Below, one piece after another: positions 6,425-8,434 of a stretch of 64,000 nucleotides of DNA. Position 1 is the stretch's first letter. Each line of letters begins with the position of its first letter. Both the position numbers and the translations under genes were made by a program. A model generated the notes under the pieces. It worked only from the letters and a program-made list of their open reading frames with translations, was not told the DNA's origin and made no database searches. The DNA comes from Escherichia phage SME50: sequence record MT887289.1. One strand, written 5' to 3'.

Positions 6425-6510
6425 GATGACCTCAAAGTTATATTAAATTTTGTATTACGTTGAGTATAAAAATAAGCTATAACACCTGACTTGTCAACAG
6501 ATTTTATAGC

Positions 6511-6959
6511 TTATTTGGCAGATTTTTTATAAGGCTACTGCCATCCTTCCATACTTTACCGAACATCACCCTACTGAACCCGACCCTACCTCACCCGACC
6601 CAACCGAACCGTACCGAGCACAGCCTTATTAAAAGACCCTGTTTAAAGACCTTTTAAAAAGGTAAGTCTCATTTTAATGTAGCTGAGACTAACTACCCGC
6701 ACCGAACCTCACCTGACCTGACCGCACCCGACCTCACCGCGCCATGCCATACCATACCTCACTTAAAAACCCTTTTCAAAGACTCTTAAGTGATGTAATC
6801 GAATTTTAATGTAGCTCCGATTAACTACCCATACTTTACCTAACCCGACCGCACCTAACCCGACCTGACCCTACCAGACCCCACCTAGCTAAACCTTATT
6901 AAAAGACCCTGTTTAAAGACCTTTTAAAAAGGAGCCTCCGAAGAGGCTGCCTAGTCAAC
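6511..6959. repeat. repeat locus 1: conserved hairpins plus (NNACC)n pentanucleotide arrays
   Basis: three C/A-rich 5-bp periodic arrays (e.g. cgacc ctacc tcacc cgacc caacc gaacc gtacc); conserved blocks ccttattaaaagaccctgtttaaagaccttttaaaaagg; hairpins agtctca-ttttaatgtagc-tgagact and aatcg-ttttaatgtagc-cgatt (compensatory stem changes). Confidence 0.8.
6921..6951 (-). terminator. intrinsic terminator (minus strand) after gene 6960..7400
   Basis: ggagcctccgaagaggctgcc hairpin with T-run on minus strand. Confidence 0.5.
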
Positions 6960-7400
6960 TTAGAAAGGTTTTCTACGTTGCTTGTTAATATTAGCTTTCA
7001 TAGCAGCTAAGTGGTTTTGCTGTTCAATTAGTCGTGAACGTTCTTGGTGGCTAAGTGCCATAGTATTCACATTCTCAATCGCTTGAGTGGCTTGCTTTAA
7101 AGCACGACCAATCTTACCAGACATTTTACGTTTTGCAATAGTTGCTTGATGCTTAGGTTCAACCACACGATAACCAACACCCATTGAAGCAACCAGATAA
7201 ATCTTCTCTTCTTTAAGAAGCTTTTCAATAAACTTCTCAAGTCGGTTTAGACGTGTAAGTGCATAAGCCTTCATTTCATCTTCGTACTTAACAATGTCAC
7301 CTTGATAAGTTGGCTTCACAATACCTAAGAAGGTGTCCATCTCAGAATGTGATACAGTGTCACCGTAACTAAACTTTGCTGCTAATGCTTTTGTATTCAT
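6960..7400 (-). CDS. hypothetical protein
   Basis: 146 aa; flanked by the two homologous repeat loci. Confidence 0.5.
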   Translation of the reverse strand: MNTKALAAKFSYGDTVSHSEMDTFLGIVKPTYQGDIVKYEDEMKAYALTRLNRLEKFIEKLLKEEKIYLVASMGVGYRVVEPKHQATIAKRKMSGKIGRALKQATQAIENVNTMALSHQERSRLIEQQNHLAAMKANINKQRRKPF

Positions 7401-7402
7401 AA

Positions 7403-8005
7403 TTAAACGTTACCTTCTGAAATAACTTCTACAGAAAAACGACCAAAGCGTGGACGCCAATCACCTACACCACAAAGGTTGCCAGCATTTTCCAGAACCA
7501 TCAGGAGTTCCTCTCGTGTAATTTGCTCTTCATCGAACATCAAACCAAACTCTACAGACCAATCACGGAAAATTGGACGGTAGCTCATAACTCGTGCTGT
7601 ACCAATCTTAACAGATTTAGCGTAGATAAAATCTGGATTCTTAGCAAGTTCTTGTGGGTTTGCTGGACAGTTCTTGATAGTCATTGGGAAGACTACATCT
7701 GTCAGCATAATGGCTCGGTCAATTACCTTACCAAGTTTGTTGAGTTTTGCACCAGACTTGATACAAGCCTCAATCATCTCACCGTTCATAACAAAACCTA
7801 ACTGCTCATCATAGTAACAAGAAGTTACCAGTTGACTTTCTGCTAAGAGCGCATAGTCTTCGTCAGTCTTTTTACGTTTACTGGACAAAGACTTGTGATA
7901 TTTTGTCAGAGGATTTAATGGGTCTGACAGCGTATCAGCGTGGCTCAGGAAAGGACGAGTACCAGTGATTTTGATATTTAACAGTTTCATAGCATTTAGC
8001 TCCAC
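7403..8005 (-). CDS. hypothetical protein
   Basis: 200 aa; flanked by the two homologous repeat loci. Confidence 0.5.
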
Positions 8006-8057
8006 ACTTTAGTTTATTGTTAAGTTGTTTGTAAAGAACCCTCAACAGAAGACTCTT

Positions 8058-8400
8058 TAGAAACTTGGTAGATTTTTAACGTGGCTACTACCATCCACCC
8101 ATACCTCACATCACCATACTATACCTGACCGGACCTAACCAAACTCCACAGCACCATACATCACATCACACAACCTTATTAAAAGACCCTCTTCAAAGAC
8201 CTTTTAAAAAGGTAAGTCTCATTTTAATGTAGCTGAGACTAACTACCCATACTGTACCGCACCTGACCCGACCTGACCAGACCTAACATTACCGTGCAAC
8301 ACCGTACCGAACAGAACATTGCCATACCTCGCATCACTTAAAAACCCTCTTAGAAGACTCTTAAGTGATGCTGGTGAGTACCCGTGGGTCTATGCTGCTC
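8058..8400. repeat. repeat locus 2 (homologous to locus 1)
   Basis: hairpin tggtag...ctacca (locus 1 has tggcag...ctgcca); (NNACC)n arrays; same conserved block caaccttattaaaagaccctcttcaaagaccttttaaaaaggtaagtctcattttaatgtagctgagactaactaccc. Confidence 0.8.
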
Positions 8401-8434
8401 AGTATACTCACCAAATTTTCTATGTCAACAACTT

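Follow-up and report, generated by a model that had tools for sequence, protein, structure and literature searches.

The minus-strand region 6469-8428 of a 64,000-nucleotide stretch of Escherichia phage SME50 (record MT887289.1; this whole stretch is called the window below) is, with a probability of about 0.95, a type II Viral Interference Programmable Repeat (VIPR) locus of the SUSP1 clade, borne by a Felixounavirus. In the direction of transcription the locus would consist of a sigma-70-type promoter after the ligase gene, two guide RNAs (vrRNAs), the genes vipr and vap, and three further vrRNAs. The identity of these parts, their conservation pattern, the RNA structures and the matches between guides and targets were computed directly here, while we infer the mechanism by homology, because SUSP1 has the same protein, accessory gene, architecture of the RNAs and class of target. 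A VIPR system with a 98%-identical protein was published in April-June 2026, and the locus is therefore a new instance of an already described system and clade and not a discovery.

VIPR has been described in two 2026 preprints by one group (bioRxiv 10.64898/2026.04.26.720920, 10.64898/2026.04.26.720927). The system is phage-encoded and comprises the small (~20 kDa) RAMP-like protein Vipr and the accessory gene vap, and the flanking intergenic regions encode vrRNAs of ~100 nucleotides (nt), each with 9-16 YNNGG repeats and an invariable pseudoknotted 3' tail (10.64898/2026.04.26.720920, 10.64898/2026.04.26.720927). In SUSP1 these ~100-nt vrRNAs co-purify with Vipr, the ribonucleoprotein (RNP) represses transcription of matching DNA, and reprogramming of the NN positions changes target specificity; the targets of natural guides in this clade converge on a satellite phage (10.64898/2026.04.26.720920, 10.64898/2026.04.26.720927).

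The vipr product of the window aligns end-to-end with the chain deposited as "SUSP1 Vipr protein" (PDB 36pp_D), the one strong match of a PDB sequence search, with 191 of 195 residues identical (98%, E 2e-128). Twelve residues have been reported to contact the GGY bases, the skipped target base or the non-target strand (10.64898/2026.04.26.720927), and all of them (H17, K33, R39, E71, M72, K82, K88, R138, C173, D177, W178 and R179) are identical in this alignment; residue 175, given as T in the cryo-EM preprint (10.64898/2026.04.26.720927), is V in both the PDB chain and the window Vipr. The product of vap, for which a DNA-binding fold is predicted, is identical at 145 of 146 positions to that of the SUSP1 gene directly downstream of vipr. 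Neither cassette protein has a Pfam match, and vap has no PDB sequence match. Vipr proteins with at least 90% identity are found in 117 phage records, including those of Moogle and SUSP1.

The second line of evidence is the repeats. Five tracts with a strict 5-bp period, reading ACC on the plus and GGT on the minus strand, lie at ~6551-6623, 6699-6756, 6831-6893, 8101-8173 and 8249-8331, three of them within 6425-6959 (locus 1) and two within 8006-8434 (locus 2). Counted over ten consecutive pentamers, the tracts reach 10/10 in-phase ACC, compared with a maximum of 3/10 in all other parts of the 64 kb; the same phase-aware count revealed no equivalent tract on the opposite strand of the window. 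Tandem Repeats Finder and a repeat finder recovered the same tracts and conserved blocks. In a logo built from 67 distinct units of 30 related phage loci, pentamer position 1 is G (.74), T (.15) or A (.11) and never C (0), position 2 is G (.99), position 3 is T (.91) or C (.08), and positions 4 and 5 accept any base, giving the consensus D-G-Y-N-N. Tract length, taken as the distance between the flanking hairpins, varies solely in 5-nt steps, that is in whole pentamers, and the NN positions are hypervariable between phages whose flanking genes are >90% identical.

On the transcribed strand, each unit contains a 39-nt hairpin (H1), ~12-17 D-G-Y-N-N repeats, GUAUGGGUAGUUA and a 7-bp hairpin with the loop GCUACAUUAAAA; the last unit of each locus carries a tail variant instead, with the stem UGGCAG/CUGCCA or UGGUAG/CUACCA. 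The predicted vrRNAs would be 92-117 nt long, each with 12-17 pentamers (GGY plus NN) and a 3' tail. In the order of transcription, the features of the locus are as follows.

8401-8428, minus strand: P1, predicted sigma-70-type promoter (TTGACA-N16-TATACT, 11/12 consensus), just downstream of the ligase stop
8373-8412, minus strand: leader hairpin GGTGAGTA...TACTCACC, overlapping the -10 element of P1 and conserved in SUSP1, Si3 and SLAM_phiST56
8332-8370, minus strand: H1 type B (CATCACTTAA...TTAAGTGATG; 17 bp, G.U-rich upper stem)
8215-8331, minus strand: predicted vrRNA1, tract 8249-8331 with ~16-17 repeats
8215-8248, minus strand: vrRNA1 tail, GGGTAG pseudoknot arm, hairpin AGTCTCA/TGAGACT with loop GCTACATTAAAA
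8174-8212, minus strand: H1 type A (CCTTTTTAAAAG...CTTTTAATAAGG)
8066-8173, minus strand: predicted vrRNA2, tract 8101-8173 with ~15 repeats
8066-8100, minus strand: T2, terminal tail of vrRNA2, GTGG/CCAC pseudoknot, stem TGGTAG/CTACCA
8033-8058, minus strand: degenerate H1-like remnant AAAGAGTCTTCTGTTGAGGGTTCTTT, after the vrRNA2 tail and before the start of vipr, also in SUSP1
7403-7990, minus strand: vipr, predicted 195-amino-acid (aa) RAMP-like guide-RNA-binding protein, phrog_4652
6960-7400, minus strand: vap, vap1-type accessory gene, 146 aa, phrog_5926
6933-6948, minus strand: terminator-like hairpin AGCCTC-TTCG-GAGGCT, its U-tract running into the next H1
6894-6932, minus strand: H1 type A
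6797-6893, minus strand: predicted vrRNA3, tract 6831-6893 with ~13 repeats, internal tail 6797-6830 with stem AATCGGA/TTCGATT
6757-6795, minus strand: H1 type B
6665-6756, minus strand: predicted vrRNA4, tract 6699-6756 with ~12 repeats, internal tail 6665-6698
6624-6662, minus strand: H1 type A
6516-6623, minus strand: predicted vrRNA5, tract 6551-6623 with ~15 repeats
6516-6550, minus strand: T1, terminal tail of vrRNA5, AAGG/CCTT pseudoknot, stem TGGCAG/CTGCCA
6469-6497, minus strand: P2, promoter-like site (TTGACA-N17-TATTTT) before the 127-aa gene, conserved in relatives and marking the end of the VIPR locus

H1 precedes every repeat tract (five copies) and comes in two covarying stem types that share an invariant upper stem with three G.U pairs; because of these G.U pairs, the hairpin can form on minus-strand RNA only. 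Covariation was assessed over the 30 related phage loci. Within the 39 nt and 17 bp of H1, both sides have changed in 6/17 pairs, 93% of the cells are paired compared with 46-73% when the partner columns are slid, and ~22% of the stem cells are G.U pairs, which are possible on minus-strand RNA only. The internal tail hairpin with the loop ttttaatgtagc occurs three times (6665-6698, 6797-6830 and 8215-8248), with stems AGTCTCA/TGAGACT or AATCGGA/TTCGATT, and has changed on both sides in 6/8 pairs. A 4-bp helix between the segment before the tail hairpin and the hairpin loop forms a pseudoknot that is 100% paired and has changed on both sides in 3/4 pairs, reading GUAG/CUAC, AAGG/CCUU or GUGG/CCAC depending on the tail type. 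The number of independent covariation events behind these values is small, because the stems fall into only a handful of discrete types.

These results bear out every sequence feature that the original prediction, made from the letters of the window, had described. The hairpins TGGCAG-N16-CTGCCA (6516-6550) and TGGTAG-N16-CTACCA (8066-8100) are present, the C/A-rich arrays are strictly 5-bp periodic with GGT on the transcribed minus strand (five tracts, 10/10 in phase), the conserved 39-nt block (ccttattaaaagaccc...aaaaagg) recurs at 6624-6662, at 6894-6932 and, differing at two positions, at 8174-8212, and the second hairpin with its conserved loop and covarying stems is found in three copies. 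Selection on structure, which it had argued from two loci, is seen across the 30 related loci, and the minus strand is indeed the relevant one. Its suggestion that an oligomeric nucleic-acid-binding protein underlies the periodicity agrees with SUSP1 Vipr, 98% identical to the protein of the window, polymerising with one protomer per pentamer (10.64898/2026.04.26.720927). This structural reading came close. What had been missed is that the element type had shortly before been described as VIPR, that the binding protein is the product of one of the bracketed genes, and that the functional payload lies in the variable NN positions, which encode guides to DNA.

To find targets, the five tracts were converted to NNx patterns following the methods of the preprints. 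The exact 20-base core of the vrRNA5 guide (vr5; the other guides are named likewise) has matches in eight metagenome contigs, on which vr5 matches at 27-28/30 bases, vr1 at 28-29/32 and vr2 at 24-25/30; the best score of shuffled guides (n=100) was 21-22. The contigs carry a satellite-like element of ~11.4 kb. Among 5,426 complete E. coli genomes, 21 have it integrated in the chromosomal gene yecE (DUF72), strains PEC395 and MS20645 being examples; in sequence L164 it spans 3052-14407, with the NNx sites of vr1, vr2 and vr5 at 10528-10574, 3907-3950 and 3388-3431. Copies of the element in E. coli chromosomes match vr1, vr2 and vr5 at 80-93%, and the overall ranges are 26-29/32 for vr1, 24-26/30 for vr2 and 25-28/30 for vr5. 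The vr5 and vr2 sites lie within a gene for a 507-aa large serine recombinase and the vr1 site within a 184-aa open reading frame (ORF), and for all three guides the coordinates place the skipped base at codon position 3, the wobble position. The guides of related phages point to the same element: ~30 of their 62 distinct guides match it at 80% or better, and the sites are distributed along its length. Self-targeting is absent, as the best NNx match of any guide within the 64-kb window is 0.59-0.67. Core matches of vr2 in three genome contigs (two of Xenorhabdus and one metagenome-assembled genome) were dismissed as chance, with ~1 expected and none extending beyond the forced 20 bases. BLAST of locus 1 and megablast of 25 kb of the phage, both against E. 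coli genomes, returned nothing.

Since guides 1, 2 and 5 match a satellite-like element, with the skip at its wobble positions, silencing of a phage parasite is the most likely function of the locus. The tape-measure and baseplate/Dit-like proteins of the yecE element are 33-65% identical to their counterparts in the Felixounavirus Si3. When the satellite proteins were compared with the window by tblastn, no tail-gene homology was found, because the window lacks the tape-measure region; homology was seen against the complete Si3 genome. The element has no vipr, yet it encodes a promoter-driven vrRNA of its own with a tail of the phage's T2 type and an intrinsic terminator (sequence L153, 9330-9540; sequence L164, 12405-12500), which presumably is loaded in trans by the Vipr of a co-infecting VIPR-positive phage.

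By analogy to SUSP1, this phage would transcribe the locus from P1, mature the transcripts to 92-117 nt, form filaments on them and silence the satellite. P1, whose sequence is also found in SUSP1 and in phages lacking the cassette, is the predicted promoter of vipr-vap and of the vrRNAs upstream of them. As demonstrated experimentally for SUSP1 (10.64898/2026.04.26.720920, 10.64898/2026.04.26.720927), one Vipr protomer would bind each pentamer, and the protomers would flip out and sequester G1, G2 and Y3, giving a right-handed helical filament. N4 and N5 would thereby be presented and could base-pair with double-stranded DNA in the NNx register, one target base being skipped per pentamer, and the resulting gapped R-loop "triplex" would block transcription.

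Several points weigh against this interpretation. The vr2 matches reach just 80-87%, and vr3 and vr4 are without target in the IMG/VR scans with exact 20-base patterns, in the satellite contigs and in the E. coli chromosomal copies. The latter is in line with the preprints, in which about half of the guides are targetless (20 of 41 have targets; 10.64898/2026.04.26.720920, 10.64898/2026.04.26.720927). For the three downstream vrRNAs (6516-6932), which lie behind the terminator-like hairpin at 6933-6948, no promoter of their own was found. Equivalents of these RNAs were detected by small-RNA sequencing in SUSP1 (10.64898/2026.04.26.720920, 10.64898/2026.04.26.720927), so that their transcription must rely on read-through or on an unrecognised promoter. 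Moreover, expression, processing, RNP formation and silencing in this phage are all transferred from SUSP1, and the source papers on VIPR are preprints.

The earlier reading had correctly noted that the two loci bracket two genes (6960-7400 and 7403-8005) and had raised the possibility that they mediate recombination or mobility of this cassette. A precedent exists in the PeSL elements of T4-type phages, repeated intergenic cassettes of promoter and stem-loop that flank variably present genes. If the repeats were PeSL-like mobile regulatory cassettes, acting as recombination substrates that move the two genes between genomes, the variable presence of the cassette, the homologous units on both its flanks and the range of one to five units would all be accounted for. 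PeSL elements, however, have no sequence relation to the locus, in which the repeats encode guide RNAs and a protein dedicated to binding them is present. This protein, bracketed by the loci, has been characterised as a binder of guide RNA, its guides being the tracts, and a recombination role does not predict NN positions that follow a specific code in matching an external target. We found no evidence for recombination or mobility as the function of the repeats and regard it as very improbable; recombination between units probably explains gain and loss of cassette and units, but as a side effect.

Two further explanations dispense with guides altogether, and we give each of them next to no credence. 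The (GGUNN)n tracts could be sites or sponges for a TRAP-like or CsrB-like ring protein that acts by attenuation or titration, the NN positions being uninformative. A 5-nt period with a degenerate first base and two invariant bases is reminiscent of TRAP sites, and the tracts do lie between a promoter and downstream genes. In Bacillus, TRAP (the trp RNA-binding attenuation protein) binds (G/U)AG triplets with 2-nt spacers and a 5-nt period, one per protomer of an 11-mer ring. VIPR differs from this in its triplet (GGY instead of (G/U)AG), in forming a filament instead of an 11-mer ring, in DNA targeting instead of attenuation, in spacers that carry sequence information and in the lack of protein homology. 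No TRAP-like protein is evident, there is no Rfam match, the NN positions match satellite genes far above the shuffled-guide controls, and the known binder, Vipr, forms a helical filament and not a ring (10.64898/2026.04.26.720927). Alternatively, the tracts might act as DNA, with R-loops on the G-rich non-template strand or two-tier G-quadruplexes serving as a replication origin or recombination hot spot. The extreme G/C strand asymmetry, a GG-N3-GG spacing suited to G2 quadruplexes, the consensus promoter directly upstream and the position in a replication-gene module would be compatible with this, but the most conserved bases are G2 and Y3 and not G1-G2, as expected from the contacts of Vipr but not from a G-quadruplex, and the covarying hairpins with their G.U pairs point to RNA. 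The element is also dispensable for replication, since Mooglevirus Sf16 and an Erwinia Kolesnikvirus lack it at this site.

A number of other candidates were dropped. In an array of T7-like primase sites, GGT would be followed by C, which is the case in just 16% of the pentamers. Before the protein was identified, we had also considered an antisense-strand rut site for Rho, arrays of transcription pause sites or of elements resembling the sigma-70 -10 box, and a sponge of Shine-Dalgarno-like sequences. BoxA-like antitermination, to which a likeness of GGUCUUUAA to boxA GCUCUUUAA had pointed, was discarded as well.

The VIPR locus of the window and that of SUSP1 share the position between the ligase and the 127-aa gene, the promoter, the leader hairpin, H1, the GGY/NN tracts, T1, T2, the internal tails and the class of satellite target. 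They differ in the number of vrRNAs upstream of vipr (one in SUSP1, two here, each followed by three downstream), in the guide (NN) sequences and in the host phage, which is a Suspvirus for SUSP1 and a Felixounavirus here. With the Cas7-type effectors of class 1 CRISPR-Cas systems, VIPR has in common, according to the preprints, a RAMP-fold filament on a guide RNA and a thumb that flips bases periodically; both also have a variable guide capped by a conserved structured handle, and both are directed against mobile genetic elements. In contrast to class 1 CRISPR-Cas, VIPR is devoid of CRISPR repeats and spacers, cas1/cas2 and an acquisition module, its period is 5 nt with three guide bases and one target base flipped (6 nt with one flipped base in class 1), its guide is noncontiguous and phage-encoded, and it silences transcription instead of cleaving. 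Accordingly, the repeats of the window are hairpin modules and degenerate pentamers, with no array of identical repeats and unique spacers, and no Cas Pfam domain was matched among the neighbouring genes (ligase, vipr, vap and small ORFs).

The region of the window is related to Felix O1-like myoviruses (Felixounavirus; 90-94% identity over 3 kb), and its DNA ligase matches the one of phage vB_EcoM_Shy at 100% identity. In the direction of transcription on the minus strand, the ligase gene (8435-9574) is followed by vipr (7403-7990, or to 8005 in the mechanical ORF of 200 aa with a GTG start), vap (6960-7400) and the 127-aa gene (6041-6424), the product of which looks secreted. No Rfam family matched within 6425-8434 even at E<=5, and vrRNA is evidently not in Rfam 15. 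Literature searches covering pentanucleotide repeats as well as the repeats and transcription start sites of Felixounavirus yielded nothing on these elements, and the repeats are not discussed in the papers on the Felix O1 and wV8 genomes; the wV8 record labels just a 58-bp "DR_4".

The comparison with related genomes that the original prediction had proposed was carried out and showed that the two-gene cassette is variably present. The 117 phage records with Vipr at 90% identity or more carry it, and Salmonella phage Si3 and SLAM_phiST56 lack it, having the ligase gene, one unit and then the 127-aa gene; across phages, the number of units ranges from 1 to 5. The orphan units (Si3, sequence L005, 3426-3707; SLAM_phiST56, sequence L006, 3426-3702; tract at 33969-34028 of the Si3 genome) comprise the P1 promoter, the leader hairpin, H1, ~11 GGY/NN repeats and a T1 tail, and sit between two promoters. 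The complete Si3 genome contains no homologue of Vipr or Vap (best tblastn E 0.33) and exactly one GGY tract, and the Si3 orphan guide does not match the satellite (0.70). Such orphan vrRNAs could be loaded in trans by the Vipr of a co-infecting VIPR-positive relative, or could be decoys that soak up the Vipr of a competitor. No discussion of a promoter-driven orphan vrRNA in vipr-less relatives was found in the text of the VIPR preprints.

With H1 included, the units are spaced at ~133-158 nt and the RNAs observed in SUSP1 measure ~100 nt, so that H1 is probably removed from, or lies outside, the mature RNA. We therefore consider H1 probably to be a spacer, processing or insulating element outside the mature ~100-nt vrRNAs. 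At the position between vrRNAs, other VIPR types carry hammerhead ribozymes (10.64898/2026.04.26.720920, 10.64898/2026.04.26.720927), and the H1 hairpins of type II may take over their role; no mention of H1 was found in the text of the preprints. The combined proposal, that the orphan units are functional "guide-only" loci and not deletion scars and that H1 is a processing or insulating element like the hammerhead ribozymes elsewhere, is tentative, and we would sooner bet against it than for it.

Degenerate (GGTNN)n tracts are not confined to these phages. An IMG/VR scan for seven in-phase GGT triplets found them in many unrelated viral contigs, often as long arrays, and these presumably are other VIPR types. 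On contig L041, the array is directly preceded by a gene whose product is similar to the window Vipr at the C-terminus (32% identity, E 1e-9, GIGDFRP versus GVGDWRP). The array itself (4600-5060, minus strand), directly downstream of this distant Vipr homologue, has at least eight units with the spacer AAGGCTAATGGGT. Contig L051 (2200-3250, plus strand) contains ~13 GGTNN units with the spacer AAGGAATGGTTTAATGAATTTAATTT, and similar GGTNN arrays with short conserved spacers are present in contigs L048, L127, L085, L087 and L149.

Two observations lie outside the VIPR locus. At 51730-53246 the window has ~1.5 kb without ORFs of 50 aa or more, densely filled with motifs (TGTTAAG, TGTTAGC and sequences like GCTATAAAG) that recur about every 11 bp and with more than 15 overlapping arrays in Tandem Repeats Finder; gene orientation and GC skew change there, and candidate roles are those of an origin, of a region for packaging or a genome terminus, or of clustered protein-binding sites. 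A Felixounavirus Ro60-like "RNA-binding protein" adjoins a tRNA cluster (Si3 genome, 573-1988) and is unrelated to the VIPR locus; according to the PhageMaP preprint, some Felixounavirus "tRNAs" may be Y RNAs (10.1101/2024.10.10.617714).

VIPR is a recently reported form of RNA-guided DNA recognition that combines a noncontiguous guide code with a minimal RAMP-like reader, and a proposal exists that CRISPR effectors descend from it. For the phages studied here, an annotation is now available for genes that are called "hypothetical protein" in every GenBank record inspected. The code was recovered independently from sequence, through the satellite target, the skip at the wobble position and the covariation of the pseudoknot, and a blind reading of raw sequence was able to flag a VIPR-type system. 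The orphan vrRNAs and the hairpins between vrRNAs provide modest leads for VIPR biogenesis and for conflict between phages.

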